From Elusimicrobiota bacterium (GTDB lineage Bacteria > Elusimicrobiota > Elusimicrobia > UBA1565), in NCBI GenBank assembly GCA_043827405.1, contig JBDRPD010000074.1:1-23925 (forward strand): a stretch of DNA of 23,925 nucleotides, read 5' to 3'. Every line of letters starts with the position of its first letter. Positions within the stretch are counted from its first letter, which is position 1. The translations under genes were made by a program, and so were the position numbers. Below are positions 1 to 23,925 of this stretch, piece by piece. A model generated the notes under the pieces. The model was not told where the DNA came from and did not search any database. It saw nothing but the letters and a program-made list of their open reading frames with translations.

Positions 1-204
1 AGCGCGTCCATGCGCGCCAACTGCGTGGAGGAGGCGAAGCTTATCAAGGCGCTGCGGGAAAATGACGCGCGGTTGGTCGCCGGTACGGTATTCGCGCCGC
101 TGCTCGACCGCGGAGCTTCCTGCGCCGCGCTGGAAGCGCAGGCGCTGGAGACGTATGAAAGGTTCCGCGCCGAATACGCCGCTATCAGGGAGGCCGCGCG
201 ATGA
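1..204 (+). CDS. 3' end of a hypothetical Cys-rich protein, paralogue of the next two genes (5'-truncated by the window)
   Basis: The frame is open from position 1. C-VEEAKLIKALR...AGTVFAPLLDRGASCAAL...ALETYER aligns with C-TLQASLLKALR...ADTPYAPLVDDGASCAAL (201..1343) and C-RERAKLLLALR...AGTVYFPVFDRKASCEGA (1340..2467). Its TGA overlaps the next ATG (ATGA 201-204). Confidence 0.85.
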   Translation, partial: SASMRANCVEEAKLIKALRENDARLVAGTVFAPLLDRGASCAALEAQALETYERFRAEYAAIREAAR

Positions 205-2467: not shown

Positions 2468-2501
2468 AAATACCGGGCAGACGAGCATAATTTGGTATGA
2501 T
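2464..2501 (+). promoter_or_regulatory. Candidate sigma70-type promoter(s), distal
   Basis: TTGAAA (2464-2469)-N16-CATAAT (2486-2491), plus an extended -10-like TGgTATGAT (2493-2501), at the start of the only sizeable AT-richer intergenic gap. Confidence 0.4.
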
Positions 2502-2610: not shown

Positions 2611-3372
2611 ATGGGCAAGAGCGTCAACGTCGACATTAAAACAACGATTTACCCGTTGGAAGCGATCTACGCGGCTGCCTACCAGTTCATTGATCGGGCG
2701 TATGTCCGTCTCGAAGAGAAGCCGAAGCAGGTGATCCGGGTCTGCCTGGACCCCAAAGAGGACGCGGACCCCAAAGCTTTCAAGAAAATCGACGGCGAAT
2801 TCCTTAACGAGCTTGTCCATCAGTTCGTGCGCACCAAAGTGGCCGAGAGCAATAAGAAGATTCGCGAGTACGTGGTGACTCGAGCGCTGCTGTCGGCGCA
2901 GTCGGTGCAGGAAATACCGGCCGGCTTCCCCGTGCCCGGCGCCCCCTCTCCCGAAGGCATGCTTCCCGGTCCCGACGGGATACCCAACCTCGGTTCCGAC
3001 GGTCAGCCTGTTTCCGGCGTGCAGCAGGGCGAATCCCCCATGGTCGACCAGCGGGAGGATGACCCCAGCCCCGGCGCCAACCTCGACCGGGTCAACCGCA
3101 AGGCCGCCCCTTCGGACGACGCATTGGCCGATGAGATCCAGAAGCTGCTTTCGGAGATCGACTCGGGCGGCGATGCGGAGGATCCCCTGGGCATAACCGC
3201 CCCGTGGGAGGAGCAGGCGGCCGAGAAGGGCAAGGACGCGAAAGCCAAGGGAAAGACCAAGCGCGGGAAAGTTAAGAAGGTCAAAGCCGCGAAAGGCGGC
3301 GGCAAGGACGCGCTCGCCGACGAGATCAAGGCGCTGCTGGAATCGGAGGCGGGAGGGGGCAAGTCCAAGTGA
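2611..3372 (+). CDS. hxsD: His-Xaa-Ser system protein HxsD with a long low-complexity C-terminal extension
   Basis: The N-terminal ~95 aa (IYPLEAIYAAAYQFIDRAYVRL...GEFLNELVHQFVRTKV...IREYVVTRAL) matches the HxsD pattern as I recall it. It sits upstream of hxsB and an HxS-repeat peptide. The tail is Pro/Gly/acidic, then Lys-rich, and contains DPLGITAPWEE. Confidence 0.8.
   Translation: MGKSVNVDIKTTIYPLEAIYAAAYQFIDRAYVRLEEKPKQVIRVCLDPKEDADPKAFKKIDGEFLNELVHQFVRTKVAESNKKIREYVVTRALLSAQSVQEIPAGFPVPGAPSPEGMLPGPDGIPNLGSDGQPVSGVQQGESPMVDQREDDPSPGANLDRVNRKAAPSDDALADEIQKLLSEIDSGGDAEDPLGITAPWEEQAAEKGKDAKAKGKTKRGKVKKVKAAKGGGKDALADEIKALLESEAGGGKSK
3115..3348 (+). repeat. Internal duplicated helix motif in the HxsD tail
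   Basis: DDALADEIQKLLSE (3115-3156) and KDALADEIKALLESE (3304-3348). Confidence 0.75.
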
Positions 3373-3575
3373 CCCTGAAGTTCAGCTCCAACCTCTACTC
3401 CAGGGCGGCTATCGATTACGCGATAGCGCGCTATAAGGACTTCGCCCGGATCAAGGTCAGCAAAACCGGCAAGGCTTTTCAGGTCGCTTTTTCCGGCATG
3501 GACGCGGAATTTGCCGACGCCCTTCCGGGCGAGTTCTCCAACTGCGTGCTGCTGGCGATGCGGGAGGGCGCGTGA
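3369..3575 (+). CDS. Small HxsD-like protein (68 aa)
   Basis: GTG start with RBS GGAGG/GGGGG upstream and GTGA overlaps on both sides. LYSRAAIDYAI...GEFSNCVL parallels IYPLEAIYAAA...GEFLNELV of HxsD. Confidence 0.75.
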   Translation: MTLKFSSNLYSRAAIDYAIARYKDFARIKVSKTGKAFQVAFSGMDAEFADALPGEFSNCVLLAMREGA

Positions 3576-5026
3576 GGGTCCCGGCGCCGCCCAAGATCGA
3601 CGACCAGAAGGTCGGATTTTTTCGCTTCCGGAAAGTGGGCGGCAAGTATGTGCTCACCAATGATACCGGCCAGTTCGCGCGCCTGACCCAGGCGCAGTTC
3701 GCTAAGTTTCTCGGCGGCAAGCTCAAGTCCAAGGACGTCCTGCACCAGGAGCTGCGGGCCAAGGGCTTTATCCGCGACTTTATGGATTTCGACAAGACGG
3801 TCGAAGCCTGGTCGCAGCGCCACAGCTACCTGATGCAGGGACCTAATCTGCATATCATCGTGGTGACCCTGCGCTGCGATCACGCCTGCACCTACTGCCA
3901 GACGAGCTCCGCGCCGATGGACCGCGACGGCCTCGATATGACCCAGGAGACGGCGAAGAAGACCGTCGATACGGCTTTCGAGACGCCGAACCCGGCGATG
4001 ACGATCGAATTTCAGGGCGGCGAACCGCTGGCCAACTGGCCGGTCGTGAAGTATATCGTGGAGTACGCCCTTAAGAAGAACAAAGAGAAGCATAAGACGC
4101 TGATGCTCAACCTGGTCAGCAACCTGAGCCTGATGGATGACAAGAAGCTCAAGTTTTTGCTCGATAAGGGCGTCAATATCTGCACCTCGCTCGATGGGCC
4201 GCAGCACGTGCACAACGCCAACCGCATCCTGCGCGGCGGCAACAGCCATGCGAACGTGATCGCATGGTTTAAGAAGATCAAGAAGCTTACCAAGGGCAAG
4301 CCCCATGGGATCGACGCCCTGATGACCACGACGCGGCTGTCGCTCAAGTATCCGGAAGAGATTATCGACGAGTACGTGCGGCTCGGCGCCCGCGGCATCT
4401 ACCTGCGGGGGCTGTCGCCCTTCGGCTTCGCCAAGAAGACCTGGGACGTCATCGGCTACTCCGCGGATGAGTACCTTGAGTTCTATACCCGCGCGCTCGA
4501 TCATATCTTCAAGCTCAACAAGAAGAAGCGGTTTTTTGAGCAGCACGCGCGGCTCTATGCCGCCAAAATCCTCAAGAACGAGGAGCCGAACTTCCTCGAT
4601 CAGCGCGACGTCTGCGGCGCGGGGATCGGCCAAATCGCCTACAACTACGACGGACGCGTCTTTACCTGCGACGAGGGGCGCATGCTCGCGCAGATGAGCG
4701 ACGAGGCGTTCAAGATCGGAGATGTCAACAAGGATACGTACGGGGACATGATCAACCATGCGACCGTGCGCGCCTGCGCCTCGGCCTCCTGCCTCGACAA
4801 TAACGCGGAGTGCTCTTCCTGCGCCTACAAGCCGTACTGCGGGACCTGCCCGGTGGAGAACTACTTCCTGCAGGGCGACCTGTTTCTCCGCGCGCCGCTG
4901 AGCGGCCGCTGCCGCATCTACAAGGGTCAAATGGATTACTTCTTCAAGAAAATGGAAGATCCTTGGATCGTGAAGACCATGAAGTCCTGGACGCGCGTAC
5001 CGTCGGGACTCTATCAGAGGGATTAA
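3572..5026 (+). CDS. hxsB: His-Xaa-Ser system radical SAM/SPASM peptide maturase HxsB
   Basis: 484 aa. Motifs: CDHACTYC, EFQGGEPL, TSLDGP and the SPASM cysteines CGAGIGQIAYNYDGRVFTCDEGRML...CSSCAYKPYCGTCP...C. It has an N-terminal FFRFRK..GKYVLTNDTG extension and lies directly upstream of the HxS peptide. Confidence 0.9.
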   Translation: MRVPAPPKIDDQKVGFFRFRKVGGKYVLTNDTGQFARLTQAQFAKFLGGKLKSKDVLHQELRAKGFIRDFMDFDKTVEAWSQRHSYLMQGPNLHIIVVTLRCDHACTYCQTSSAPMDRDGLDMTQETAKKTVDTAFETPNPAMTIEFQGGEPLANWPVVKYIVEYALKKNKEKHKTLMLNLVSNLSLMDDKKLKFLLDKGVNICTSLDGPQHVHNANRILRGGNSHANVIAWFKKIKKLTKGKPHGIDALMTTTRLSLKYPEEIIDEYVRLGARGIYLRGLSPFGFAKKTWDVIGYSADEYLEFYTRALDHIFKLNKKKRFFEQHARLYAAKILKNEEPNFLDQRDVCGAGIGQIAYNYDGRVFTCDEGRMLAQMSDEAFKIGDVNKDTYGDMINHATVRACASASCLDNNAECSSCAYKPYCGTCPVENYFLQGDLFLRAPLSGRCRIYKGQMDYFFKKMEDPWIVKTMKSWTRVPSGLYQRD

Positions 5027-5029
5027 GCC

Positions 5030-5338
5030 ATGGCGAAAAAGAATAAAGACGACGGTAAAGACAAAAAGAAAAGAGTCCTGCCGGCGGTGAAAAAGGAGCT
5101 TGGCCGGTTCCTCACCAGCGAAGAGGGGAAAATTTTAAAGGAAGATGTGTTTAAGGCCGCGGTCGTCCTCGGCATCGTCGGCACCGCGATGACTCACGGC
5201 GAGGACGCGCTCGCGCAGTCGCACCAAAACTACCTGCACAACTCCGGCGGCACCGGCTCGCATTACAGCCACAGCTCCCACGGCTCGCACGGCAGCCACG
5301 GCTCGCACGGCAGTCACGGTTCTCATGGAGCATGGTGA
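5030..5338 (+). CDS. hxsA: His-Xaa-Ser repeat RiPP precursor peptide (HxsA-type)
   Basis: 102 aa: a Lys-rich N-terminus, RFLTSEEG, the hydrophobic VFKAAVVLGIVGTAM, then ALA-Q, then the core ...HNS...HYS-HSS-(HGS)5-HGAW. RBS GAGGG upstream; starts 3 nt after the hxsB stop. Confidence 0.9.
   Translation: MAKKNKDDGKDKKKRVLPAVKKELGRFLTSEEGKILKEDVFKAAVVLGIVGTAMTHGEDALAQSHQNYLHNSGGTGSHYSHSSHGSHGSHGSHGSHGSHGAW
5261..5332 (+). repeat. 9-bp-period coding tandem repeat encoding HYS-HSS-HGS x5-HGA
   Basis: cat tac agc / cac agc tcc / cac ggc tcg / cac ggc agc / cac ggc tcg / cac ggc agt / cac ggt tct / cat gga gca. Synonymous codons vary between units. Confidence 0.95.
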
Positions 5339-6233
5339 CGCTCCCCGGCTCGTCCTAACAATCACCCGCGCCTGCAACCTACGTTGCGGCTTCTGTCCCC
5401 TCGAAACAGGAAAGATGGATATGTCGTCCGAGGTCGCGGCGCGGGCGACAGCTCTTTATCGGGACCGATTCGCCGGCCGCCGGCAGCATGTGCGTTTTTT
5501 CGGCGGTGAGCCGTTGCTGCGCTTCGGCCTGCTGCGCGACATCGTGGCTTCGTTTCCCGAGGAGGTGCGCTTTTCCTTCCCCACCAACGGCACTTTGTTC
5601 GCTGCGGAGACCGCCGACTTTCTGCGGACGCATCCGCAGGTGGAAGCGGCGGTCAGCCGGGTGCGCGACGTCCGCTTGCTGGCCTCGCTCGACAACGTTT
5701 TGATCAGCGTCTGCGTACCGCCCCAGGGTGCCGCCGACCTGGCGCCCTATGTGGCGCGGCTGCTGAAGGCGGGGATCTCGCGGCTGAATTTTCTGCCGGC
5801 TTTTTATGTGCGCTGGAATGCGGGAGAGACCGCCGCTTTGCGGCGGTCGTTTGGCCTCACCGCCGGCCTGATTCGGGAGTGGAGGTCCCGCGGACATGCC
5901 GTGGAGGTCCGCAATGCCGCCGTCTTCAATCCCGTCCCGCTCTACAATCACGGCATGGTCGTGGATTACAACGGCGACATTTATTCGAGCAACGCCGCCC
6001 TGGGCGCCGGATTCAAGGACCTGCGCGGTGAGCTGCGCCTGGGCAGCGTGCTGAAGCCGAAGACGGTCGCCTGGGAGCGCGCCGATAGCATCGATTGGCC
6101 GGCCCTCTTCCGGGCGAGGCTCGACGACGATGTCTATCAGTCCACCCGGCGGATCAACGATTCGCTGACGGACTTCGTACGGGAACTAGGTGATCATAGG
6201 AGCAGAAATGCGCCGGCCGCCGTCTCTGTGTGA
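5325..6233 (+). CDS. Radical SAM protein without SPASM cysteines
   Basis: 302 aa. Motifs CNLRCGFC, FFGGEPLL and PTNGT. The C-terminal VDYNGDIYSSN resembles a SPASM/twitch hairpin but has no Cys. It overlaps the precursor 3' end by 14 nt. Confidence 0.85.
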   Translation: MEHGDAPRLVLTITRACNLRCGFCPLETGKMDMSSEVAARATALYRDRFAGRRQHVRFFGGEPLLRFGLLRDIVASFPEEVRFSFPTNGTLFAAETADFLRTHPQVEAAVSRVRDVRLLASLDNVLISVCVPPQGAADLAPYVARLLKAGISRLNFLPAFYVRWNAGETAALRRSFGLTAGLIREWRSRGHAVEVRNAAVFNPVPLYNHGMVVDYNGDIYSSNAALGAGFKDLRGELRLGSVLKPKTVAWERADSIDWPALFRARLDDDVYQSTRRINDSLTDFVRELGDHRSRNAPAAVSV

Positions 6234-7383
6234 CGAGGAATACCCGCCGCTGGACGGCGCCTATCAGAACCGGACCTACGGCCGGCGCCTGAGCCTGGCG
6301 GCGGTCAAGGGCTTTTGGGAAAAAACCTTTCGCCTCGCGGCGCGCGGTGCGGTTCCCGCCGGCGTGGGGCTCTATGTGCATTGGCCGTTTTGCCGCGCCC
6401 GCTGCGCGTACTGCTACTGCGACAGCCGAGCGGCGGCGAGCGCCGCCGAGACGGAGCGCTATCTCGATGCGCTGCGGCGCGAGATGCGGGTCTTTCGCGG
6501 GACGTTTCGCGGCGTGCGGCTGTCTTCTCTTATCCTGGCGGGAGGCACCCCGACCCAGGCGTCCGCGGCGCAGCTCCAGCGGCTGTTTGACGGTATCGAT
6601 GACTGCTTTCAATTCCAAGAGGATGCGGATATCGCGGTCGAGGCGTCGCCGGATACGCTGACGGCGGCCCGGGCCCGGCTGCTGCGCCGCCGCGGCGTGC
6701 GCCGCATAGATCTCGGCATCGACGCCATCGACGCGGCCGTGCTCCGGGCGGCCGGCAGGCCGCAGAGCCTGCGGTCGGTCCGGCGCGCCTGCGCTGCGGT
6801 TAAGGATGAGGGAATGTCGCTCGAGGTCGGTCTGATTTTCGGCATCGAGCGCCAGACCGGCGCGTTATTCATCCGCGACCTGGTACGGGTCCTCGGTATC
6901 AAGCCCGCACGGATAAGGATCTACGGTTTCGAACCGCGGCCGCAGACCCTCTGCGCGCCGTCCGCGAATGCGCCTGCGGCGGCCCAGGTTTTCGCGCTGG
7001 CGGACAAGCTTATGCGCCGCGCCGGCTATGGAACCAGCTCCGGCATGTGGAGCGTCCCGCCGTCTTATCTCGGTATCGGCTGGAGCGCCAAGTCGCGCTG
7101 CTGCGGCGCCGGCTGGTATCAGCACCCGCCCCTGGGGCGCACCCGGCCGGTAACCGACCAGCTGCCGCCCTTTGCGGGAATGGCGCTGAGCTTGGCCGAG
7201 GAAAAACGCGGTGAGCTGATCAGCCGCCGCGCGGTGCTGGGGAACCGCCGCGGGCTGCACCGTCATTACAGCGCCGGCGTACGCCGCGAGCTGCGCCGCG
7301 TGCACGGCAAAGACTGGGCGAACGGGAACGGGACCGCGCCCGCAGAGCTGGAGTGCCGGGTCTATGAGAGGCGCGCATCATGA
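6208..7383 (+). CDS. HemN-like (class C-type) radical SAM protein, paralogue 1 (shorter, divergent)
   Basis: Motifs GLYVHWPFCRARCAYCYC, AGGTPT, EASPDTLT and RIDLGID. I moved the start from the track's 6190 to ATG 6208, which follows AGGAG (6198-6202). Confidence 0.8.
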   Translation: MRRPPSLCDEEYPPLDGAYQNRTYGRRLSLAAVKGFWEKTFRLAARGAVPAGVGLYVHWPFCRARCAYCYCDSRAAASAAETERYLDALRREMRVFRGTFRGVRLSSLILAGGTPTQASAAQLQRLFDGIDDCFQFQEDADIAVEASPDTLTAARARLLRRRGVRRIDLGIDAIDAAVLRAAGRPQSLRSVRRACAAVKDEGMSLEVGLIFGIERQTGALFIRDLVRVLGIKPARIRIYGFEPRPQTLCAPSANAPAAAQVFALADKLMRRAGYGTSSGMWSVPPSYLGIGWSAKSRCCGAGWYQHPPLGRTRPVTDQLPPFAGMALSLAEEKRGELISRRAVLGNRRGLHRHYSAGVRRELRRVHGKDWANGNGTAPAELECRVYERRAS

Positions 7384-8822
7384 AGGCGGCTGCCCGGCTG
7401 CGTGAGTACCTGTCCACCTTCTGCTTCGACGACTACTATTTTCCGATGGACGGTCCGTTCCAGAACTACACCTACTTCCCGTCCGCGAGCCTCGACGAGG
7501 TCCGCGCCTGCTGGAAAAAGACGGTGCGGCTTATGCGCGCGGGCAAGGCGCCGCGCGACCTCGGCATCTATATCCATTGGCCTTTCTGCGCCGCCCGCTG
7601 CGCGTTTTGTTTCTGCAGCATGAAGACGCCGGGCTCACGCAAGGAGGTTCAGCGGCAGCTGGACGCGCTGCGGCGGGAGATGGACGCCTTCCGCGGCATC
7701 TTCGATAAGACGCTGTTCACTTCCTTATGGATCGGCGGCGGGACGCCGACCTTTATGGGAGACGCGGACCTGGACGCGCTTCTGGGGCGGGTGCGCGACA
7801 GCTTCGCGTTCACGGAGGACGCCCAGATCTACGTCGAGTCCTCTCCGGCGACGCTGACGCGGACGAAAGCCGATATTCTGGCGCGGCACGGCGTCAACCG
7901 CATTACGCTGGGCGTGCAGAGCCGCGACGCCAAGGTCCTGCGGGCAGCCGGGCGCCGGGGCCAGAGCCGCGCGGTCGTTGACCGCGCTTTCGCTCTCGCC
8001 GCCGAACGGGGGCTGTTTATCGACCTCGATCTCATGTTCGGTCTCGAAGGGCAGAGCCGGGTATCTTTTGTGCGCGATCTGGTATGGGCGCTCAAGCGGC
8101 GGCCGCAGGCGCTGCATTTGTACGCTTTTGATCCCAAGCCGCAGACCGGCTACGTGCGAGCGGGCAAGCGCCGGCTCGCCGGGGGGCGCGAACGGCTGCG
8201 CATTCTCATGGAGATCGCCGACCGGTTGGCCCGGGGGGCGGGCTACCGGATGTCGCGCCTCGACCCGGCGACGCTCATGCCTGATTGCCCCGAAGAGCGC
8301 CAGGACAGCGCGGTGCGCCGCCAAGGCGCATCGGTCATCGGCTTCGGTCCGAGCGCGATCTCGCACGCTTTCGGCGGCGCCTGGTACTGCCATCCGCTCG
8401 TAGGTCGGGGCGGGCGCGCAGGAGGCATCCCGCCCTTTCGGCTGCTGCCGTCGGGGCTCGATGAGGAGATGCGGGGCTATGCGCTGCGCAATTTGGCGCT
8501 GTTCGGGAGGATTGCAGTCAAGAACTTTTACTCCCGTTTCGGCGTCGAGCCGCTGCGTGCCCGGGGAGTGGGCGGCGCACTGCAGGAGCTCGCGGCATCC
8601 GGCCGGCTGCGCGTTGACCGCAAGAGCATCGTCTACGCGGGCCGGGATCCGGTGGAGCGCGGGATAACGCTCAAGCGTCTCTATAGCCCGCGCCTGCTGG
8701 GTGCGCTGATGCGTGGGCGGCGGCGGGAGTTCACGGCCTATGCCAAGGGCCGCAACGGCGCCGCGGCAATCGCCGACAAGATGGAGGACCGGTCTCTGTT
8801 TCGGGCCTACTTCCGCCCATGA
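7380..8822 (+). CDS. HemN-like radical SAM protein, paralogue 2
   Basis: 480 aa. Motifs GIYIHWPFCAARCAFCFC, GGGTPT, RITLGVQS, DLMFGLEGQS and IGFGPSAISH. ATGA overlaps on both sides. Confidence 0.88.
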   Translation: MKAAARLREYLSTFCFDDYYFPMDGPFQNYTYFPSASLDEVRACWKKTVRLMRAGKAPRDLGIYIHWPFCAARCAFCFCSMKTPGSRKEVQRQLDALRREMDAFRGIFDKTLFTSLWIGGGTPTFMGDADLDALLGRVRDSFAFTEDAQIYVESSPATLTRTKADILARHGVNRITLGVQSRDAKVLRAAGRRGQSRAVVDRAFALAAERGLFIDLDLMFGLEGQSRVSFVRDLVWALKRRPQALHLYAFDPKPQTGYVRAGKRRLAGGRERLRILMEIADRLARGAGYRMSRLDPATLMPDCPEERQDSAVRRQGASVIGFGPSAISHAFGGAWYCHPLVGRGGRAGGIPPFRLLPSGLDEEMRGYALRNLALFGRIAVKNFYSRFGVEPLRARGVGGALQELAASGRLRVDRKSIVYAGRDPVERGITLKRLYSPRLLGALMRGRRREFTAYAKGRNGAAAIADKMEDRSLFRAYFRP

Positions 8823-10345
8823 TCGATTCGGAACGCCTCTTTCGCTGTATGTTCCATGGGCTGCTGGCCCGCAGCGACGACTATCCCCCTAAAGACGGCC
8901 TGTACCAGGACTATACCTACTTCAAGCCGGCGCCGCTGGATAAGATCCGCGACGCCTGGAAAAATACGGTCCGGCTGATCCGTGACGGCAAAGCGCCGGA
9001 GAATATCATCCTCTACATCCACTGGCCGTTTTGCCCCAGCCAGTGCACCTACTGCTTTTGCAGCATGACGGTGTCGCAAAACCGCCGGGAATGGGACAAC
9101 TATACCCGGTCGCTGATGCGGGAGATGGACGCCTTCCGCGATGTGTTTAAGGGCGTCGAGCTGCACTCGGTATATTTCGGCGGCGGGACGCCGACCTATA
9201 TCACGGAGAGCCAGCTCGATGCGCTGTTTAAGCATATTCGATCCTGCTTCAAGCTGCGCCGGGGAGCGGAAATCTACTTTGAAGCCTCGCCGGCGACGCT
9301 GACGGCCAAGAAGGTCGATCTTTTGCGGCGGCACGGAGTGAACCGCATAACGCTGGGCCTGCAGACGCGCGACGACGCCGTGCTGCGCGGGGTTAACCGC
9401 AAGGGGCAGAGCAAAGAGGCGGTCGAGCGCGCCTGGAAACTGCTGGCGGGATGCCGCGGCATTATCCGCGACGTCGATTTGATGGTCGGCTTGGAGGGGC
9501 AGACCCGTATGTCCTTTTTGCAGGACCTGATTTGGTCGATTCGCAAAGGCGCCGATATTATCCATATCCAATCCTTCGACCCGCGCGCCCAGACGTTGTT
9601 CTCACGCAAGCGCAAGCGTAAGGATGCCGATTACTGGCGGGTGATGGCGAAGACCGTCGAGATCGCCGAGGGCGTGCTCAAGACCGCCGGCTACGGCATG
9701 ACGCATTACGATTTGCAGCGAGGGGTCGGTACCAGCGAGGAGAAGATCCTGTCGGACGATCCGTTCGAGCTGTCGTCGGTGCTCGCGCTCGGCAAGCACG
9801 GCAAGGCGCATGCTTTCGGCAGCGCCTGGTACCAGCACCCGCCGGTCCGGGCCGGGGGCTTCCGTTCCGACCGCATCCCGCCGTTCCAGTATATCCCGGC
9901 CGATCTTGATGAGGAGATGCGCTGCTACGTCATCCGCAGCTTGTGTTTGCATGAACGCGTGAACCTGCCGGCGTTTCGCCGCCTCTTCGGCCGGGAGCTT
10001 AACGAAGATGTAGAGGTCTACCGGCCGCTGCTCGAGCTCGCCCAATGGGGCAAGGTGCGGCTGGGGACGTCCGAGATCCGCCTGGCGTCGCGCACTCCCC
10101 TGGAGCGGCTTATCTGGCTTAAGCATCTGTATCACGAGTCGGTGCTCAACGACGTGATCGCCAAGCACCGCGGCCGGTTTGCGGAATTTAAGCGCGCCTA
10201 TAAGCGCGATCCTGAAAACACGCTCCGGCAACTGCGTACCAAGGCCGAAGCGCGGACCTATCACCTGGTTTACTACCAAGGGTTTGGCGGCGGGCGGCGG
10301 CGTCTGCCGACGGAGAATGAGACCCGGCAGCTGGCGGCGCTGTGA
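8819..10345 (+). CDS. HemN-like radical SAM protein, paralogue 3
   Basis: 508 aa. Motifs LYIHWPFCPSQCTYCFC, YFGGGTPT, RITLGLQT and DLMVGLEGQT. Confidence 0.88.
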   Translation: MIDSERLFRCMFHGLLARSDDYPPKDGLYQDYTYFKPAPLDKIRDAWKNTVRLIRDGKAPENIILYIHWPFCPSQCTYCFCSMTVSQNRREWDNYTRSLMREMDAFRDVFKGVELHSVYFGGGTPTYITESQLDALFKHIRSCFKLRRGAEIYFEASPATLTAKKVDLLRRHGVNRITLGLQTRDDAVLRGVNRKGQSKEAVERAWKLLAGCRGIIRDVDLMVGLEGQTRMSFLQDLIWSIRKGADIIHIQSFDPRAQTLFSRKRKRKDADYWRVMAKTVEIAEGVLKTAGYGMTHYDLQRGVGTSEEKILSDDPFELSSVLALGKHGKAHAFGSAWYQHPPVRAGGFRSDRIPPFQYIPADLDEEMRCYVIRSLCLHERVNLPAFRRLFGRELNEDVEVYRPLLELAQWGKVRLGTSEIRLASRTPLERLIWLKHLYHESVLNDVIAKHRGRFAEFKRAYKRDPENTLRQLRTKAEARTYHLVYYQGFGGGRRRLPTENETRQLAAL

Positions 10346-16875: not shown

Positions 16876-17816
16876 CTTACCTTCAGATCACGCGGCGCTG
16901 CGACCAAAGCTGCCGCTTCTGCTCGAATCCATCCAACGGCCGCATGATCCCGCTGCGGCGCGCCAAGAAGTGGATCGACCGCTTCGTCAAGGAAGGCTAC
17001 GCCGGCCTGATCCTGACCGGGGGCGAGCCGACTTTGCACCCGGAGCTCGACAAGATTATTCGCTATACGGTCGACAAGAAGAAGGTCGCGGCGCGCGTCA
17101 TCACCAACGGTCAGAAGATCAGCGACTTCGCCTACCTCGAGCGCCTGCGCGACGCCGGCCTCCGGCATCTGCATGTTTCCGTTTACTCGCACCAGACCGG
17201 GATTATGGCGCAGCTGACGCGCCGGCCCAACTCGCTGCCGAATATTATCCAGGCCCTGGACAACGCGGCCGAGCTGGGGATGCACGTCGACGTCAATACG
17301 GTCATCAACCGCTACAACGCCGATCACCTGAGCCGGATCGTGGAGTGGATCTGCGGCCGCTGGCCCGCGGTGCGGCATTTCGTGTGGAACAATATGGATC
17401 CGACCATGAACCGGGCCAGCGACAACCCCGACACCGTGCCCCGGCTGAAGGACTTCGAGCTCGAGCTCTACCGCGCGATGAGCTTCCTTGAGTCGACGGG
17501 CCGCACCTTCCGCTGCGAGCGCGTGCCGCTGTGCTTCATGACGGATTTCGCCCACTGTTCAACCGAGACCCGCAAGCTGGTCAAGAGCGAGGGGCGCGCC
17601 ATCTACTTTCTCGATGAGAAGGGGATCAAGTTCCAGAACACCAAGGGCTTCTGGAATTACAGCAAGGCGCCCAAGTGCGCGCATTGTCCGCTGAACTCCA
17701 TCTGCGCCGGCCTCTATGAGATGGACACCTACTACAGCTCGGACGAGCTGTGCCCCGTTTTTGTGTCCAAGGAAGCGATCGTCGACCGGGTCCTGCGTTC
17801 TGGGGAGCAGGCGTGA
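16863..17816 (+). CDS. HxsC-like radical SAM protein
   Basis: 317 aa, GTG start after GAGG. Motifs CDQSCRFC, TGGEPTLHP, ITNG, RVPLC and CAHCPLNSICAG. Confidence 0.87.
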   Translation: MSELAYLQITRRCDQSCRFCSNPSNGRMIPLRRAKKWIDRFVKEGYAGLILTGGEPTLHPELDKIIRYTVDKKKVAARVITNGQKISDFAYLERLRDAGLRHLHVSVYSHQTGIMAQLTRRPNSLPNIIQALDNAAELGMHVDVNTVINRYNADHLSRIVEWICGRWPAVRHFVWNNMDPTMNRASDNPDTVPRLKDFELELYRAMSFLESTGRTFRCERVPLCFMTDFAHCSTETRKLVKSEGRAIYFLDEKGIKFQNTKGFWNYSKAPKCAHCPLNSICAGLYEMDTYYSSDELCPVFVSKEAIVDRVLRSGEQA

Positions 17817-19045
17817 CGCTGAGCTTGTTTTTCTACGATGCCCTGCTGCTTATGGGGCTTGTCATCTCCTACGAGGACTGGCGCGAGCGCAAGATCCGCA
17901 ACCGCTGGATCGTCGCCGGGCTGCTGCTGTGCGCCGGGGGCTACCTCTACCTGCTCGCCAACAGCGTGCTGGGGTATTCGAAGCTGCGCTGGATGGGGCT
18001 CGGCGAGTACTATCTGCCGTGGAACTTCTACCTCCTCGTGGCGGGACATGTGCTGCTGGTGATCATGACCGGCATCGTGAGCTGGTGGATGGGGCTGTGG
18101 CCGGCGGGCGACGCGAAGCTCTACATCGTCTTCGGCATCCTGATCGTGCTCATCGACCAGAATGTCCGGGGCTTCCCGTATATCGTTTTTCTCAAGCTGC
18201 TCATCAATATCTTCGTGCCGGCCGGTTTATGGATTCTGGCGACGGTTTTGCTGGGAGCGGTTAAGTCGCTGCCGAAAGTCGATTTTTCCAACCCGCGGCG
18301 CCGGGTGGAGGGGCTGCTGGACCGGGCCTGGAAGCGGGGGCGCGATATCTGGCCCTATCGCTACGGCTTTACGGTCTATCTGCTCAACATCTTCCTGCTG
18401 TTCTTCGCGCTCGATCTCCTGGAAGGACGATTCGCGGAATTGTCCTTTCTTAAGAACGCCTGGGGCAAGATCGTCGTGCTGCTGCTGATGTACGTGCTGT
18501 GGACGCCCGTCAGCCGGCTGCTGAAGGGAAAGCGCTTCTGGCGGACCTGGCTGCTCATCGCGGCCTGGTGGGTGTTCGATCCCGTGCTGCGGCAAACCAA
18601 TATGGCGGCGGCGGTAGCGGATACCATGGAGACCGTGATTATGTTCGGGGTCATCCTGACCTTTCTGCGCTCGGCGGTTACCCTCTTTCTGCGCTGGGAG
18701 AGTACGGAGAATATCGACGCCAAGGACCTGCGGCCCGGCATGATCCTGTCCGAGAAGGCTTGGGAGACCATGCAGGAATTCGGCCGCGAGCGCCGGGAAA
18801 ATTTCCCGCGCCGCTACGCCGACGGCCTGTTCCCGGAGGATGTGGAGCGGCTGCAGGAGTGGAAGATCCCGGATGCGGTGGTGACCGTCTACCGCGCCAC
18901 GCCATTCGCTTTCTGGGTGTTCTATGGGACCTTGATCACCCTGGTGCTGCCGAAAAACGCCGTCTACTGGCTGTTCCGGATCTTGTACGATCCGTCGGGG
19001 GCGGTCTATTCCTTCCTGCGGCTGTGGGGAATAGGGAGCGGCTGA
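17813..19045 (+). CDS. A24-family (prepilin/preflagellin peptidase-like) polytopic aspartic peptidase (~410 aa)
   Basis: I moved the start to GTG 17813 (GTGA overlap, GGGGAG RBS). The first Asp motif is SYEDWRERKIRN (Asp at 17876) and the second is WPAGDAKL (Asp at 18110). It has many hydrophobic segments, and the C-terminal DLRPGMILS...GL..EDVERL...ATPFAFWVFYG resembles FlaK-type peptidase C-termini. Confidence 0.75.
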   Translation: MTLSLFFYDALLLMGLVISYEDWRERKIRNRWIVAGLLLCAGGYLYLLANSVLGYSKLRWMGLGEYYLPWNFYLLVAGHVLLVIMTGIVSWWMGLWPAGDAKLYIVFGILIVLIDQNVRGFPYIVFLKLLINIFVPAGLWILATVLLGAVKSLPKVDFSNPRRRVEGLLDRAWKRGRDIWPYRYGFTVYLLNIFLLFFALDLLEGRFAELSFLKNAWGKIVVLLLMYVLWTPVSRLLKGKRFWRTWLLIAAWWVFDPVLRQTNMAAAVADTMETVIMFGVILTFLRSAVTLFLRWESTENIDAKDLRPGMILSEKAWETMQEFGRERRENFPRRYADGLFPEDVERLQEWKIPDAVVTVYRATPFAFWVFYGTLITLVLPKNAVYWLFRILYDPSGAVYSFLRLWGIGSG

Positions 19046-19049
19046 CGGC

Positions 19050-20042
19050 ATGCAACGGTTCGCGGATCTCAAGACCGGCTATGACTGCAACAACAACTGC
19101 GTGTTCTGCGTGCAGGGCGAAAAACGGAAGCAGCACGCGCCGTTGGCCTGCGCCGAGATCGAGCGCAAGCTCAAAGAGGGGCGCGGCCGGGGCGCCGAGC
19201 GCCTGCTCATCGCCGGCGGCGAGCCGTCGATCCGCGAGGACTTTCTGCCGACGGTGCGCGCGGCCCGCGGCCTCGGCTATTCCGAGGTTCACGTGCAGAC
19301 CAACGGCCGCCGCTTCTGCTATCCCGACTTTTGCCGGCGGACGATCGACGCGGGTGTGACCCACTATCATGCCGCGCTCCAGGGCTCCGGCGCGCCGCTG
19401 CATGACTATCTGACCGGTGCCGCGGGGAGCTTCCTGCAGACCGCGGCCGGCATCCGCGGCCTGCGGCGGCTCGGCCAGCGGGTGCTGACCGATACCGTTA
19501 TTACCAAAGCGAACTACCGCGACCTGCCCGACCTCGCGCGACTGCTGGTGCGGCTCGATGTGAACCAGGCGCAGCTGAGCTTTATTCACGCCGCGGGCTC
19601 CGCCGCCGCGGCCAAGGCCTGGCTGGTCCCGCGCTATGCGATGATCGAGCCTTGGGTCAAGGCCGCGGTCGACGTCTGCTCGCGCTCGGGAAAGACGGTT
19701 ACGACCGAGGGTATCCCGTACTGCTGCCTGCGCGGCTATGAGAGCTATGCGGCGGAGCTGATCATGCCCGAAATCGTGGTGTTCGACGCCGCCGGGACGA
19801 TTGAAGACTTGGCGCGGCACCGCGCCGAGAACGCCCGGGTCCTCGACGAGCGCTGCCGCGACTGCGCCTATGCCGGGGCCTGTGCCGGGCCGTGGCGGGA
19901 GTATCCGGAGCTGTTCGGCTGGAGCGAGTTCGCCGCGGTCCGGCGAGGGTGGCCGGCCGCGCCGGCGGACCAGCAGGCGGCCTTTGTCTGCGGCAAGAAC
20001 GGCCATATGCTCGAGCCCAAGCGGAGTGTCTGCCATGGCTGA
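19050..20042 (+). CDS. HxsC-like radical SAM protein
   Basis: 330 aa. Motifs DLKTGYDCNNNCVFC, AGGEPSIR, QTNGRRF, LHDYLT, EGIPYC and CRDCAYAGACAGPWREYPELFG. Confidence 0.88.
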   Translation: MQRFADLKTGYDCNNNCVFCVQGEKRKQHAPLACAEIERKLKEGRGRGAERLLIAGGEPSIREDFLPTVRAARGLGYSEVHVQTNGRRFCYPDFCRRTIDAGVTHYHAALQGSGAPLHDYLTGAAGSFLQTAAGIRGLRRLGQRVLTDTVITKANYRDLPDLARLLVRLDVNQAQLSFIHAAGSAAAAKAWLVPRYAMIEPWVKAAVDVCSRSGKTVTTEGIPYCCLRGYESYAAELIMPEIVVFDAAGTIEDLARHRAENARVLDERCRDCAYAGACAGPWREYPELFGWSEFAAVRRGWPAAPADQQAAFVCGKNGHMLEPKRSVCHG

Positions 20043-21360
20043 CAACGGGTACCGCAGCTACGAGAATCCGAACTGCCTGCCGCCGGACGTCCCCGGCTGG
20101 CGCAGCTTCCTCAAGCGCGACCGGTTTGCCCGCCACAAGTACCACTCGCTTATGCCCGCGCATCCCTGCGTCGACATCATGCACGGAGATCTGGAGTGCC
20201 GCTACACCCATCCGACCGGGGACGGCCGTACCGTCTCCTTTCTCAACTTCCCTTGGCTGCGGCCCAATCGCGAGTCGACGCCGGCGCCGTACCGGGTTCT
20301 GACCACGGATATGCGGGAATCCGACGTGGTCGCCGGCGCGTTGGGCAAGGCCCGGCGGCAGCTCCGGCTGGCGGTCGAGGAGATGCCGAAAGGCGCCTTC
20401 GTGCTGCTGAATTCCGCCTGCGTGCCGGACGTGACCGGCGAGGATCTGGAGACGGTCGCCCGCCCCTGGCGGGACAAGGCGCCGGTCTTCTACGAAAAAT
20501 CCGACGGCAAGGATAAGGCGCCGCCGCTGGTTTCCAAGATGATCGCGCTGGCCGGCCGGCCCGCCGCGGGCAGGCGAAAGAAAGGAGTCGTCAACCTCAT
20601 GGGCTGTCCTCCGGGCCGCGTGGAGAACGAATTGCGGGAGCTGCTGGCGGCGGCGGGGCTGCGCGTCGCCGCCTCTCTGGTACCGCTCCTGTCGCCCGCG
20701 CGGATACGCGCCGCCAGCTCCGCCTCGCTCAATATCCTGATGCCCAACCGGCTCTACGACGCGCTGTTTTATGAGTTGCTGCGGGCGGTTCGGCTGCCGA
20801 TCGTCCGGCCCCCGCCGCCCTACGGCCTGGACGGCACGACGCGCTGGCTGGCGGCGACGGGCGGCAAAGCCGCGGCAGTCAGGTCGCGCCGCCGCTGGGA
20901 AGGCGATTGGGGCCGGCTGCGCCGGGAGGCGGCCCGGCACCGGCTCGGCTTCATCGTCGATCCCGGCGAGCTCGCCGTGCTCTCCGATCCGGCCCTGAAC
21001 GCCGGCTGTCCGCTGCTCCCCATGAGCAAAGAGATGGGCTTTGGCGTCGATCTTCTGGTTTACGATCCGGCGGGGAAGACGGCGGGCGGGAAGGGACGGC
21101 ACCGGGCGCATTCTTTCGGCACGCCGGATGAGCTCGCGGCGCTGATCAGCGGACTTTCCTGCGGCGCCTTCTATTCGGACTGCTTCTTTGATGCCCGCCT
21201 GTCCCGGCGCGGGAAGGGGCAGTTCTCCCTGAATTTCTTCGAGGCCGGCTTTGCGGGAGGCGTGCGCACCCTGGAGCGCCTGCTGGACGTCTGCCGCCTG
21301 CCGTTTTACCGCCGCTACGGCCGTTACCTGGGACCTCATTATGAAAAGCAAGCCGGCTAA
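20035..21360 (+). CDS. Nitrogenase component 1-type oxidoreductase-like protein A (~441 aa)
   Basis: I moved the start to ATG 20035 (GGAG RBS at 20023-20026). IMHGDLEC, TTDMRESDVVAGA, LNSACVPDVTGEDLETVA, VNLMG, ELRELLAAAGL, PPYGLDGTTRWL and AGFAGGVRTLERL follow the NifD/K/E/N-BchN/B-CfbD motif order. Confidence 0.7.
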   Translation: MADNGYRSYENPNCLPPDVPGWRSFLKRDRFARHKYHSLMPAHPCVDIMHGDLECRYTHPTGDGRTVSFLNFPWLRPNRESTPAPYRVLTTDMRESDVVAGALGKARRQLRLAVEEMPKGAFVLLNSACVPDVTGEDLETVARPWRDKAPVFYEKSDGKDKAPPLVSKMIALAGRPAAGRRKKGVVNLMGCPPGRVENELRELLAAAGLRVAASLVPLLSPARIRAASSASLNILMPNRLYDALFYELLRAVRLPIVRPPPPYGLDGTTRWLAATGGKAAAVRSRRRWEGDWGRLRREAARHRLGFIVDPGELAVLSDPALNAGCPLLPMSKEMGFGVDLLVYDPAGKTAGGKGRHRAHSFGTPDELAALISGLSCGAFYSDCFFDARLSRRGKGQFSLNFFEAGFAGGVRTLERLLDVCRLPFYRRYGRYLGPHYEKQAG

Positions 21361-22645
21361 AAAGAAAATAAAGATCGGCCGCGACCTGAAGAAGTTCGGC
21401 CAGCCGCTGGATTATCCGTACCTGCTGGGCGTCTATATGGCGGTCAATGCCGTGCCCGGAACGGCGATCCTCATCGACGGGCCGGACTGCGCGGTCGGCA
21501 AAGCGGAGCATCTCTTCGGCAAGCATGACGGGCGCTCCACGCTTCTCGATTGCTCCGGGCTTAACCGCGTGGAATGTACCTTCACCGACGCCCGTAATAC
21601 CGCGCATTCGCGCGAAGCGGCGGTGCGCAAAGGCCTGCTGGCTTTGGCCGCGCGCGACGATGTACGGGCGGTGCTGCTGTCGTCTCTGCCGATGACCTTC
21701 GTTACCGGAACCGACTACCGGCGCATTCTGCGGGGAGCGGTGGAGCGGACGTCCAAGCCGCTGTATTTTGTTTCGCCGCGTTCGCTGCAGGGCGGCTACC
21801 TCGACGGCTTCGCCGCCGCCCAACAGAGCCTGGCCGAAGGAATCTCCCGGCCCCGCCGGCGCCCGGCCCGGGATAAAGCGGCGCTCGTCGGCTACCTTAT
21901 GGATCGCGGCGAGGAGGATCATCGCGCCAATCTGCAGGAGCTGCGGCGCCTGCTCGGCGCGCTGGGCGTCGATGTCGTTTCCGCGTGGTTTGACGGCTCG
22001 CCGTATGCGGAATTGGACGCCATCGGCCGGGCCGGTACGATCATCTCGCTGCCGTACGGCCGCCGGGCCGCGCGCGCCGCCGCCAAGCGGACCGGGGCGG
22101 AAGTGCTGGAGCTCGGCCTGCCGGTCGGGATCGACGGGACGCGCCGCTGGCTGGAGAAGGCCGGGGCTTTCTTCGGCGGCGCAAAGAAAGCGCGGCGCTT
22201 TATCGAATCCGAGCTGCGTGCCGTTGTGCCGCGGCTGGAATGGGTTGTGCCGCATTCGTTTTTGCATAAGCGGTTCTGGATTTCGGCCGACCCTCATATG
22301 CTTGCCGCGCTGACCGCTTTGGTCGAGGAATTCGGCGGACGCGTCGTCGGCGGCGCCGTCGTGGGAAGCGGCGTGCCTTCGGCGAAGCTGCTCGTTCGTC
22401 CAACCTCCGGGGCGCTCGCGGAAAGTCTGGGCCGGGCCTGCGCCGCGGGCGTCGACCTGGTGATCGGCGGCAGCGACGTCATAAAGCATGTGCCGCGCGG
22501 CGTGCCGGCGATCGAGCTGGGCTTTCCCTCATACTTCACGCATGCCCTGCATGCCAGCCCGACCATGGGTTTCGCGGGGAGCCTCGCGCTCATGGACCGC
22601 ATGGCGAATGCGATGAGCGCGGCGGCGTCGCCCCGGGGGGAGTGA
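21341..22645 (+). CDS. Nitrogenase component 1-type oxidoreductase-like protein B (~434 aa)
   Basis: I moved the start to ATG 21341. Motifs LIDGPDC, VTGTDY, ELRRLLGALGVDV, LPVGIDGTRRWL, DLVIGGS and IELGFPSY...PTMGFAGSLALMDRMANAM. Confidence 0.75.
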   Translation: MKSKPAKKKIKIGRDLKKFGQPLDYPYLLGVYMAVNAVPGTAILIDGPDCAVGKAEHLFGKHDGRSTLLDCSGLNRVECTFTDARNTAHSREAAVRKGLLALAARDDVRAVLLSSLPMTFVTGTDYRRILRGAVERTSKPLYFVSPRSLQGGYLDGFAAAQQSLAEGISRPRRRPARDKAALVGYLMDRGEEDHRANLQELRRLLGALGVDVVSAWFDGSPYAELDAIGRAGTIISLPYGRRAARAAAKRTGAEVLELGLPVGIDGTRRWLEKAGAFFGGAKKARRFIESELRAVVPRLEWVVPHSFLHKRFWISADPHMLAALTALVEEFGGRVVGGAVVGSGVPSAKLLVRPTSGALAESLGRACAAGVDLVIGGSDVIKHVPRGVPAIELGFPSYFTHALHASPTMGFAGSLALMDRMANAMSAAASPRGE

Positions 22646-23925
22646 TGGGAGACGCCAGCGCGATCCGGCGGCTGTTCGGGGCCGCCGCGCGCAGCCCCAT
22701 GTGGACGCGGGAGGGCGTCTTCCTGTATCCTCCGAAATCACTGTGGTCGCCGCTGCGCCCCGCGCAGGCGGCCGCCGACTGGCGCCAGCTCAAGCATGCG
22801 GATAATGATCCGGTCGGGCTGTATGTCCATCTGCCGGCCGAGACGGAGTCGATCGCGGAATTCTTCGCGCCGCGCCGGACGCATCCGTATATCGAGTGCC
22901 TGCAGAAGGAGGCGGATATCCTGCGCTTGCCCGCCGACCTGCCGCTGCGCACGCTGTATATCGGCTCGGGCGGCGCCGGCGTGCTCGGGAGCTTTTCGGC
23001 CGCGGACATCCGGACCTTGCTGAGCTGGCTGCGCCGCCGCTTCCGGCTGTCGTCTTTGCAGCAGGCGGCGGTCGAGGTCGATGCCGCCGAGCTGACGCGC
23101 GAGAAGGTGCGCGAGCTCAAGCGCGCGGACGTCGACCGCGTGACCGCCTTTTGCCCCGCGGCGGACGGCCCCGAGGTTTTTCTGCGCCGCCGCCGCTTCG
23201 CCGCCGGCCTGCGGCTGTGCCGCCGCGAAGGTATTCGCTATATCTCGATTGATCTGGCGGCCGGCCGGCCCGGAAAAACAGCCGGCGCCTCCTGTCTCGA
23301 CGCCGAGTTCGCTCTGTCGCTTAAGCCCGACGCGGTGCATCTCCATGACCAGAGCATGCCGGCCGCCGGGCGGACCATGCCGCTCGGCCGCCTGCAGCGG
23401 CTGGTGGCGGCGGCGCAGAAGGAGCGCGGTCCGGAGGGCGAGCCGAGCTCCGCGGCTAATAATCTCCAGCTGTCGCACGTATCCGCCCGCAGCGCCTCCA
23501 TCCTGGGTCTGGGCTGGAATGCCGTCTCCCATATCCGCGGGCGGCGGGTTTACGGGCATGCCGAGCCCTGCTTTAAATACGCCGCAGCCTTGCTTAATGG
23601 CCGCGCCCCGCGCTATACGGGGCATGCGCTGGATGAAGAGATGGAGATGCGTTCCTTCATCGTGCGCGCGCTCGAGGACACCGGGCGTTTGGACTGCGTA
23701 ACGTTTCGCGATACCTTCGGCCGCGAGCCGGAAGCGGCGTTCCCGCGGCTGTTCGGTCCGCTGCTGCGGGAAAAGCGGCTTTCCCGCCGAGCCGGGCAGC
23801 TGATAGTCGCCGCCAAGAGAGAGGAGGCGCGCTATCTGTGTTCGGTGCGGTTCTACGGGCGCGAGCTTCTGCGCCGGCTCGCGGCGGCGCCCGCGCAGCG
23901 GGCTCCGGATCCGGCGCACCGTACG
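22645..23925 (+). CDS. HemN-like radical SAM-fold protein lacking CxxxCxxC (3'-truncated by the window; absent from the ORF track)
   Basis: Translated by hand: ATG 22645 (TGATG overlap, GGGGGAG RBS), then 427 codons with no stop. MGDASAIRRLF...GLYVHLPAETESIAEFF...TLYIGSGG...EVDAAELTREKVRELKRADVDRV...SIDLAAGRPG...SILGLGWNAVSHI...EMRSFIVRAL...FRDTFGRE. Confidence 0.8.
   Translation, partial: MGDASAIRRLFGAAARSPMWTREGVFLYPPKSLWSPLRPAQAAADWRQLKHADNDPVGLYVHLPAETESIAEFFAPRRTHPYIECLQKEADILRLPADLPLRTLYIGSGGAGVLGSFSAADIRTLLSWLRRRFRLSSLQQAAVEVDAAELTREKVRELKRADVDRVTAFCPAADGPEVFLRRRRFAAGLRLCRREGIRYISIDLAAGRPGKTAGASCLDAEFALSLKPDAVHLHDQSMPAAGRTMPLGRLQRLVAAAQKERGPEGEPSSAANNLQLSHVSARSASILGLGWNAVSHIRGRRVYGHAEPCFKYAAALLNGRAPRYTGHALDEEMEMRSFIVRALEDTGRLDCVTFRDTFGREPEAAFPRLFGPLLREKRLSRRAGQLIVAAKREEARYLCSVRFYGRELLRRLAAAPAQRAPDPAHRT

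Follow-up and report, generated by a model that had tools for sequence, protein, structure and literature searches.

His-Xaa-Ser (Hxs) families were first defined by Haft and Basu in 2011 (as cited in PMC9062424), and HxsD-B-C-A has been described as an antiphage system that defends E. coli (Li et al., Nat Commun 2026, PMC13128918). In that description HxsB, HxsC and HxsD mature HxsA by N-terminal processing and by a +8 Da modification on the sequence SHRSS, and the exported HxsA blocks DNA entry; its repeats are kept in the mature protein and all five are required. The canonical systems are 99.7% from Pseudomonadota, and more than 99.8% of them consist of four genes (PMC13128918). A separate body of work concerns relatives of nitrogenase. 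Meheust et al. (2020; bioRxiv 10.1101/765248 and ISME J) described 'group VI' paralogues of NifH, NifD and NifK (NflH, NflD and NflK) in groundwater Elusimicrobia, with up to 13 radical S-adenosylmethionine (radical SAM) genes nearby, some of them with HemN_C, and proposed tetrapyrrole reduction for the group; a review (Chem Rev 2026, PMC13474568) gives group VI a simple [4Fe-4S] site, lists its function as unknown and takes the genetic context only as a 'tantalizing' tetrapyrrole hint. Here we describe a contig of an Elusimicrobiota bacterium on which the two meet: an operon headed by hxsD, hxsB and the precursor gene hxsA4 carries, at its 3' end, a nitrogenase-like pair probably of the group VI kind. 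With confidence a little better than even, we read it as one pathway that matures the (Ser-His-Gly)n peptide HxsA4 and in which the nitrogenase-like pair reduces a peptide-derived intermediate.

Hxs and group VI are not mentioned as one locus in the available portions of PMC13128918, 10.1101/765248 and PMC13474568. Meheust et al. (2020) do not use 'peptide' anywhere in their main text, and their supplement, including figure S6, may show small His-rich open reading frames (ORFs); neither His-Xaa-Ser nor RiPP (peptide made by the ribosome and modified after translation) occurs in the portions of PMC13474568 available to us; a literature search pairing 'nitrogenase-like' with RiPP terms found no joint mention. 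NCBIfam contains HxsA4, HxsC4 and HxsD-like models, and thus a 'type 4' Hxs system has already been seen by a curator.

The stretch of DNA analysed, which we call the window, is the entire 23,925-base contig (C74) of an assembly of 4.33 Mb in 108 contigs (98% complete, 63% G+C); because the window is the whole contig, the operon is cut at its 3' end. Groundwater metagenomes are the DNA data sets that contain this stretch, and its titled relatives are nearly all Elusimicrobia or Elusimicrobiota metagenome-assembled genomes (MAGs), many with a groundwater label. From position 2611 to the contig end at 23925, 18 co-oriented genes lie on the forward strand (as do all features given below) over at least 21 kb. 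All junctions between these genes fall between -67 and +4 nucleotides, with four-nucleotide start/stop overlaps at nine, and the sole true intergenic gap is one of 143 nucleotides upstream of hxsD; as judged from the sequence, the junctions are compatible with one transcription unit. An earlier interpretation of this DNA (the sequence-only reading) had claimed at least 18 co-oriented genes over more than 21 kb, 11 CxxxCxxC motifs in ten genes plus one Cys-less copy, making 12 radical SAM-fold domains, and among the products a TPR protein and two nitrogenase-like proteins; its motif counts proved exact, and the other items are all borne out by the matches given below. Its statement that the core Hxs system has no characterised final product is outdated, as the HxsABCD product has since been described, in the account cited above, as processed, modified and exported in phage defence.

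That reading had also taken the locus for an elaborated Hxs-type system, and running the NCBIfam Hxs models on its genes placed four of them over cut-off, all at the head of the operon. HxsD (2611..3372; TIGR03976, 62.7 bits, cut-off 50) has its HxsD domain at residues 9-97, for which we aligned 24 homologous N-domains, followed by a long charged low-complexity tail. It overlaps by four nucleotides the gene for a 68-residue HxsD-like small protein (3369..3575; NF038315, 59.3 bits, cut-off 41), which is followed by the radical SAM/SPASM maturase HxsB (3572..5026; TIGR03978, 512.3 bits, cut-off 370; CxxxCxxC at residue 102), the only copy over the TIGR03978 cut-off in the genome. The fourth is the 102-residue HxsA4 precursor (5030..5338; NF038313, 59.5 bits, cut-off 55). 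It is the sole ORF in the 4.33-Mb assembly with at least four HxS motifs per 30 residues, in agreement with the single visible precursor claimed before. HxsA4 runs from a Lys-rich N-terminus through RFLTSEEGK, a hydrophobic segment, HNSGG and SHYSHSSH into (SHG) repeats and a terminal GAW. Among 20 distinct relatives, F27, S30, E31 and E32 of the leader are invariant and the C-terminal Gly-x-Trp is conserved. Relatives have between 7 and 30 HxS motifs, and the eight of the window's copy lie at the low end; this count is uncertain and may be an assembly artefact, since metagenome DNA contigs break at 5284-5307, inside the 9-nucleotide tandem repeat (5254-5319) that encodes (Ser-His-Gly)n.

Compared with the canonical system, the window has in common HxsD, HxsB and a His-Xaa-Ser repeat protein over their cut-offs, an order that starts with D and B, and a precursor with an N-terminal part and, where the repeats begin, an SHSSH that can be compared with the SHRSS modified there. 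It differs in most other respects. Instead of HxsC over cut-off it has five distant HxsC-like and five HemN-like domains together with one short radical SAM enzyme; hxsA4 directly follows hxsB in an operon of 18 genes, which departs from the four-gene D-B-C-A architecture; and it adds the HxsD-like protein, a GxGD protease, a TPR protein and the nitrogenase-like pair. HxsA4 itself has only 102 residues with Ser-His-Gly repeats, and Pfam finds in it neither a peptidoglycan-binding nor any other domain at E <= 10 (two chance-level rows only). The host is an elusimicrobiote and not one of the Pseudomonadota.

The nitrogenase-like pair consists of an NflD-type subunit (20035..21360; PF00148, 70.2 bits) and an NflK-type subunit (21341..22645; PF00148, 143 bits), the latter a member of a family of paralogues that has as many as 12 matches in a related genome. 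Neither belongs to a curated family: against the NCBIfam models for Nif, Vnf, Anf, DPOR, COR and Cfb, their matches reach at most 36 bits, with cut-offs of 268-1229, and among solved structures they come closest to NifE/NifN and NifK, at E values of 1e-8 or weaker. Our tentative assignment of the pair to group VI draws on the phylum of the host, the genes around the pair and an identity of 31-52% to the D/K-like genes of related Elusimicrobiota. With the described group VI sets it shares the phylum, the type of habitat, highly divergent NifD/K-like pairs that have few conserved Cys residues and adjoin radical SAM genes, HemN-like ones among them, several sets of paralogues in each genome and a NifD/K fold outside all curated families; it differs in that the pair comes late, at the 3' end, in an operon that begins with hxsD-hxsB-hxsA4, with NflH located outside the window. 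Conserved Cys residues are few, namely C55 and C129 in 34 of 34 NflD-like sequences (C420 in 28 of 34) and C50 in 28 of 30 NflK-like sequences (C71 in 17 of 30). Two in the one subunit and one or two in the other would fit one simple [4Fe-4S] site, as in DPOR or CfbD, and by number alone they would be in line with the reduced set of group VI, at most four of the six P-cluster positions. DPOR (BchLNB) and CfbCD resemble the window pair in their few D/K-like Cys residues and their dependence on a NifH-like ATPase, and provide a model for ATP-driven two-electron reduction of a conjugated ring, whereas by score the window pair is far under the BchN/B, BchY/Z and CfbD cut-offs.

The own genome has three NifH-like genes, below the NifH, CfbC, BchL and BchX cut-offs and all on another contig of 31 kb (C101). 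There they belong to a second nitrogenase-like island of about 20 kb with three NflH, three to four NflD-like, three NflK-like and two to three HemN-like genes and two SPASM-type radical SAM genes. C101 was considered as the continuation of the operon and rejected: no overlap between its sequence and the window's 3' end was found, and the homologous operon of the closest relative (G008) ends in TPR genes and not in NflH.

The 11 CxxxCxxC motifs are not due to chance, because all ten genes that carry them match PF04055 at E <= 2.6e-9; two of the motifs lie within a single 799-residue protein. Pairwise comparison of the radical SAM domains separates two paralogous sets, with HxsB and the short enzyme outside both. 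The HemN-like set has 23-44% mutual identity and comprises three standalone enzymes with CxxxCxxCxC, one domain in the 799-residue protein and the last gene of the window. For the standalone genes (6190-10345) the best family is STM4012, at 148-157 bits with a cut-off of 380: HemN-like 1 (6190..7383) reaches 157 bits with STM4012 and 123.6 bits with HemN; HemN-like 2 (7380..8822) has as solved relatives HemN (1olt, 1.8e-25) and the class C methyltransferase NocN (9p2u, 2.7e-17); and HemN-like 3 (8819..10345), recognized by NCBIfam and Pfam, is 44% identical to HemN-like 2. None of the HemN-like proteins reaches the cut-off of the HemN, HemW, HemZ, ChuW/HutW or STM4012 equivalogs (best 157 with a cut-off of 380), and by these sequence comparisons the five domains are classed as HemN-like, outside any named family, with the CxxxCxxC core in four and missing in the fifth. 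NocN, a class C thiopeptide methyltransferase, is a HemN-like fold that acts on a ribosomal peptide and the second-best solved match to HemN-like 2; the similarity is distant, and HemN scores better.

The HxsC-like set has 22-33% mutual identity and a C-terminal CxxCx5C in each member. HxsC-like a (10342..11310) scores 91.4 bits with HxsC4 and 60.9 with HxsC; HxsC-like b (15736..16875) 110.9 and 97.0; and HxsC-like d (19050..20042) 126.8, over the full model, and 90.4. HxsC-like c (16863..17816) is the best conserved enzyme of the set, with 56-64% identity to five relatives. The cut-offs of HxsC (TIGR03977, 267.9) and HxsC4 (NF038332, 500) are not reached by any protein in the window, the best scores being 97.0 and 131.3 bits, respectively. 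The fifth HxsC-like domain is part of the 799-residue protein (11298..13697), in which it is fused to a HemN-like domain with HemN_C. Five more full-length proteins (795-805 residues, 44-63% identity, 97-100% coverage) have this architecture, and the fusion indicates that the two enzyme sets are functionally linked; a related-locus search with the fusion protein as the single query gave 49 pattern matches, of which none was confirmed. Outside both sets, the short radical SAM enzyme (5325..6233; 302 residues) has CxxxCxxC at residue 17, a PF04055 match at 2.6e-9 and no C-terminal Cys cluster, and is 24-56% identical to its relatives.

We searched for these genes in 61 genomes of the same order and, more widely, in 151 genomes of the phylum (genomes are given as G numbers). 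Among the 61 relatives, HxsB is over cut-off in 38 and an NflK-like protein is present in 19, and 18 of these 19 also have HxsB at E <= 1e-30. Leaving aside the own genome, NflK and HxsB lie on one contig in eight of 18 NflK-positive genomes (G005, G008, G025, G027, G034, G035, G047 and G052). By tblastn, hxsD-hxsB-hxsA4, HxsC-like radical SAMs and NflD/K were found on one contig in G027, G034, G035, G047 and G052; within these five the membrane protease was detected only in G052 and G035, and HemN-like only in G027. In G005 and G008 the parts occupy separate stretches or contigs; synteny between G008 and the window extends from the short radical SAM gene to the Cys-less HemN-like one, at 39-66% identity. 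The order of genes after hxsD-hxsB-hxsA4 varies among relatives, with HxsC-like genes and in places HemN-like, protease and NflD/K genes. In G035 it is HxsA4, radical SAM, NflH, NflD, NflK, HxsC-like b, HxsC-like c, protease and HxsC-like d, and in G112 it is similar. The genomes G027 and G035 contain a single NflH match apiece, in both cases within the hxs cluster.

In the phylum sample, an NflK-like protein at E <= 1e-60 was found in five of the 151 genomes. One family (f5) of the same class accounts for G112, G141 and G167, all of which have HxsB on the same contig, 2-20 kb from the NflK-like gene; the maps of G112 and G141 show an HxsA4 peptide alongside, and in G112 NflH-D-K is embedded among HxsC-like genes. 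The sequence-only reading would have been undermined had the accessory genes failed to accompany hxsA and hxsB elsewhere; instead the HxsC-like enzymes, membrane protease, HemN-like enzymes and nitrogenase-like pair recur with hxsD, hxsB and hxsA4 in several genera and in two further families. Homologues of HxsC-like c were found in 538 related stretches of species-representative genomes, the titles of which include Myxococcota, Omnitrophota, Spirochaetes and 'Deltaproteobacteria' MAGs. Beyond the phylum, the module HxsC-like b-c-protease-d occurs with HxsD, HxsB and an HxS peptide, mostly without NflD/K. As a separate observation, two genomes of 2.0-2.2 Mb from one genus (G027, contig C4, and G021, contig C13) each carry at least six HemN-like genes in a row, in a cluster of about 25 kb that takes up more than 1% of the genome.

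Taken together, the tight coupling of the genes, the interleaving of Nfl and Hxs genes, the cases with a single NflH and the fusion protein make a single HxsA4 pathway the most economical explanation. By analogy with the canonical HxsB/C/D, modification in such a pathway would be started in the cytoplasm by HxsB, for which HxsD and the HxsD-like protein would act as small adaptors. The five HxsC-like and four active HemN-like domains would then act repeatedly on the Ser-His-Gly units, and the Cys-less HemN-like and TPR proteins may serve as non-catalytic binders or scaffolds. NflD/K, fed by one of the three NflH encoded on C101, would carry out an ATP-driven reduction of an unsaturated peptide-derived intermediate through one simple Fe-S cluster, its substrate not being a free tetrapyrrole. 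The A24/GxGD protease would remove the leader at the membrane, and the product would end outside the cytoplasm. Candidate roles for this product are metal binding, construction of a surface structure, service as a cofactor and phage defence. We infer all of this chemistry (iterative radical SAM modification, NflDK reduction with NflH in trans and leader removal) from the sequences, and the product that the sequence-only reading had proposed, a hypermodified peptide or a peptide-derived metallocofactor, has the same standing. A wider proposal, which we regard as possible if rather doubtful, is that group VI nitrogenase-like enzymes are enzymes of peptide pathways and that, with the HemN-like and HxsC-like enzymes, they turn Ser-His-Gly units into a new reduced, imidazole-derived structure, either a polymer or a released cofactor.

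Several findings weigh against a single peptide pathway. No HxsC-like protein is at the HxsC or HxsC4 cut-off, and NCBIfam and Pfam find no NifH-like gene in the window. Of the 42 relatives that have no NflK match, 21 do have HxsB, so that the nitrogenase-like part is added only optionally and could form a pathway of its own. Taking 10 kb on either side of HxsC-like c homologues, 22 of 78 loci have NflD/K and 13 a true HxsB, and only one has both, the clusters being longer than these stretches; at the same loci an HxsC-like b homologue lies within 10 kb in 50 of 78. G021 has an NflHDK and radical SAM block and no HxsB match, on a contig that ends at the expected hxsB site, and the NflK match of G112 contains one in-frame TGA. 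Other such findings bear on what we consider an unlikely alternative, namely that two adjacent pathways share the operon: an Hxs peptide module (hxsD, hxsD-like, hxsB, hxsA4, HxsC-like and protease) and a group VI/HemN-like module that remodels a tetrapyrrole into a new cofactor. The tetrapyrrole proposal is published (10.1101/765248) and repeated in PMC13474568, and the closest solved relative of the HemN-like enzymes is HemN, a tetrapyrrole enzyme, with HemN_C present in the fusion protein; to this can be added that the C101 island combines NflHDK and HemN-like genes on a contig with no HxS or His-rich peptide ORF, and that Myxococcota and Omnitrophota loci have Hxs and HxsC-like/protease modules without NflD/K. 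Yet the nitrogenase-like genes are interleaved with Hxs genes in operons of overlapping genes here, in G035 and in G112, the fusion unites both supposed modules in one protein, and the second solved relative, NocN, is a HemN-like enzyme of a peptide pathway. The presence of tetrapyrrole genes divides in the same way. ALAD and HemC are possessed by the own genome, G027 and G035, which favours two pathways; in contrast, neither ALAD (PF00490) nor HemC (TIGR00212) has a match in G112 (98% complete) or G141 (96%), both of which have NflHDK beside HxsB and HxsA4, and the window has no chelatase or further tetrapyrrole gene by NCBIfam and Pfam scans.

The HxsA4 peptide might also serve other ends than those just proposed. 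That the locus is an enlarged antiphage system, in which a matured His-rich protein is exported and blocks phage DNA entry in the envelope while the extra enzymes elaborate this effector, seems to us quite unlikely. HxsD, HxsB and the HxsA-type protein are homologous to parts that defend E. coli (PMC13128918), the N-terminal part of the precursor is likely removed, and its hydrophobic segment fits export, as in the canonical system; however, HxsA4 is short and lacks any Pfam domain, including the peptidoglycan-binding one, the canonical system is nearly always of four genes and from Pseudomonadota (PMC13128918, frequencies above), and PADLOC on the window gives only viperin-like radical SAM similarity of a generic kind. 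Moreover, HxsB in 38 of 61 relatives is in our judgement a lineage-wide distribution, in contrast to the usual patchiness of defence islands. We give still less credence, at most a slim chance, to a multi-core precursor of which each Ser-His-Gly unit yields a released small imidazole-derived molecule or cofactor and the repeat number sets only the yield. Such an arrangement would suit the variation from 7 to 30 HxS motifs while leader and Gly-x-Trp stay conserved, and also the presence of many different enzymes around one very simple repeat; on the other hand, the single membrane GxGD protease is the only enzyme seen that could cut the units out, and in the canonical system the repeats remain in the mature protein, where all five are needed (PMC13128918).

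The membrane protease on which leader removal would depend is a polytopic membrane protein of the A24/GxGD aspartyl type (17750..19045; start codon uncertain). The A24-type peptidase of the sequence-only reading holds, with indirect support, as a divergent member of its family: Pfam gives zero matches to the window's own copy even at E <= 10, while 15 of 23 aligned homologues match PF01478 (Peptidase_A24) at E <= 1 (best 1.6e-7). The alignment of these 23 sequences shows invariance only at W112, G120, D121 and K123 and near-invariance at D43 and N51, and the conservation of D43 together with G120-D121-x-K123 constitutes the two-aspartate GxGD signature. An exhaustive structural search with an AlphaFold model (pLDDT 80.6) placed FlaK at the top (3s0x_B; Z 11.2, root-mean-square deviation 3.5, 168 residues aligned; next Z 6.3), whereas Foldseek against the PDB with the same model gave nothing at E <= 0.001 and the sequence profile gave no protease match among PDB sequences. 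The protein is thus like FlaK and the prepilin peptidases in its two Asp motifs, its fold and its location in one cluster with a substrate in which a hydrophobic segment comes after a charged N-terminus; it differs from them in being under Pfam detection, in an extra domain between helices at about residues 310-400 and in a substrate without a clear class III signal. A class III (prepilin-type) signal in HxsA4 was considered and rejected, as a Gly or Ala is conserved before Lys34 but Glu +5 is not, and the hydrophobic stretch begins about eight residues later.

The two candidate scaffold proteins are a TPR repeat protein (13694..15736; TPR_19, 4.7e-33, and others), the start of which is an ATG overlapping the upstream stop, and the Cys-less HemN-like protein (22642..23925; HemZ 3.6e-10, STM4012 9e-9), the gene for which is cut by the contig end. 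The G008 homologue of the latter is 598 residues long and has a TPR part at its C-terminus, so that the window's copy probably lacks about 170 residues. CxxxCxxC is lost in all four copies of this subfamily that we examined (window, G008 and, in the own genome, contigs C34 at about 101014-102141 and C66 at about 29086-30201), and from its sequences the subfamily looks like a conserved non-catalytic 'pseudo radical SAM'.

Further observations concern the two ends of the Hxs head and the region in front of it. The tail of HxsD (residues about 100-253, some 150 residues) is Pro/Gly-rich, then acidic, then Lys-rich, with DALADEI-x-x-LL-x-E occurring twice, and tblastn similarity to relatives reaches into it, to residue 200-227. 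Ten short metatranscriptome contigs, all from one run, match only the 9-nucleotide repeat of hxsA4 (5275-5319), and a few fragments of 18-40 bases were also found; any organism bearing hxsA4 is a possible source, and some member of the community sampled may transcribe hxsA4-like repeats. The 143-nucleotide gap upstream of hxsD contains a promoter-like site, TTGAAA-16-CATAAT (2464..2491), with 10 of 12 consensus matches; it is the best of four sites where 2.5 are expected by shuffling, and the consensus does not cover promoters of this phylum. Rfam gave no match at gathering score across the window and none at E <= 1 within 2350-2700. Before the gap lie two paralogous Cys-rich proteins (201..2467) with an N-terminal hydrophobic segment and a charged tail. 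Their family is represented in the window by ORFs at 1-204 (partial), 201-1343 and 1340-2467, of about 375 residues with a Glu/Arg/Ala-rich tail; they belong to no Pfam or NCBIfam family, and the ESM Atlas returned no usable match. Five more copies lie on another contig of the own genome (C106), where the first 40 bases of the window recur, and relatives of the family adjoin hxsD in G008 (L043, 9158-9778) and G052 (L033, 14944-16017).

In relatives, NflH/D/K are enclosed by hxsD-hxsB-hxsA4 clusters. Together with these relatives, the locus offers a concrete candidate substrate for group VI, a peptide of about 100 residues encoded in the same operon. If the wider proposal on group VI given above is true, this would be the first nitrogenase relative to act on a ribosomally made substrate. 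The locus would also give the Hxs family, known so far only as a four-gene phage defence of Proteobacteria, a much larger form in several uncultured phyla, one that is probably functionally different from the canonical defence. The substrate of the group VI nitrogenase relatives, for their part, may be a peptide and not a pigment-like ring.

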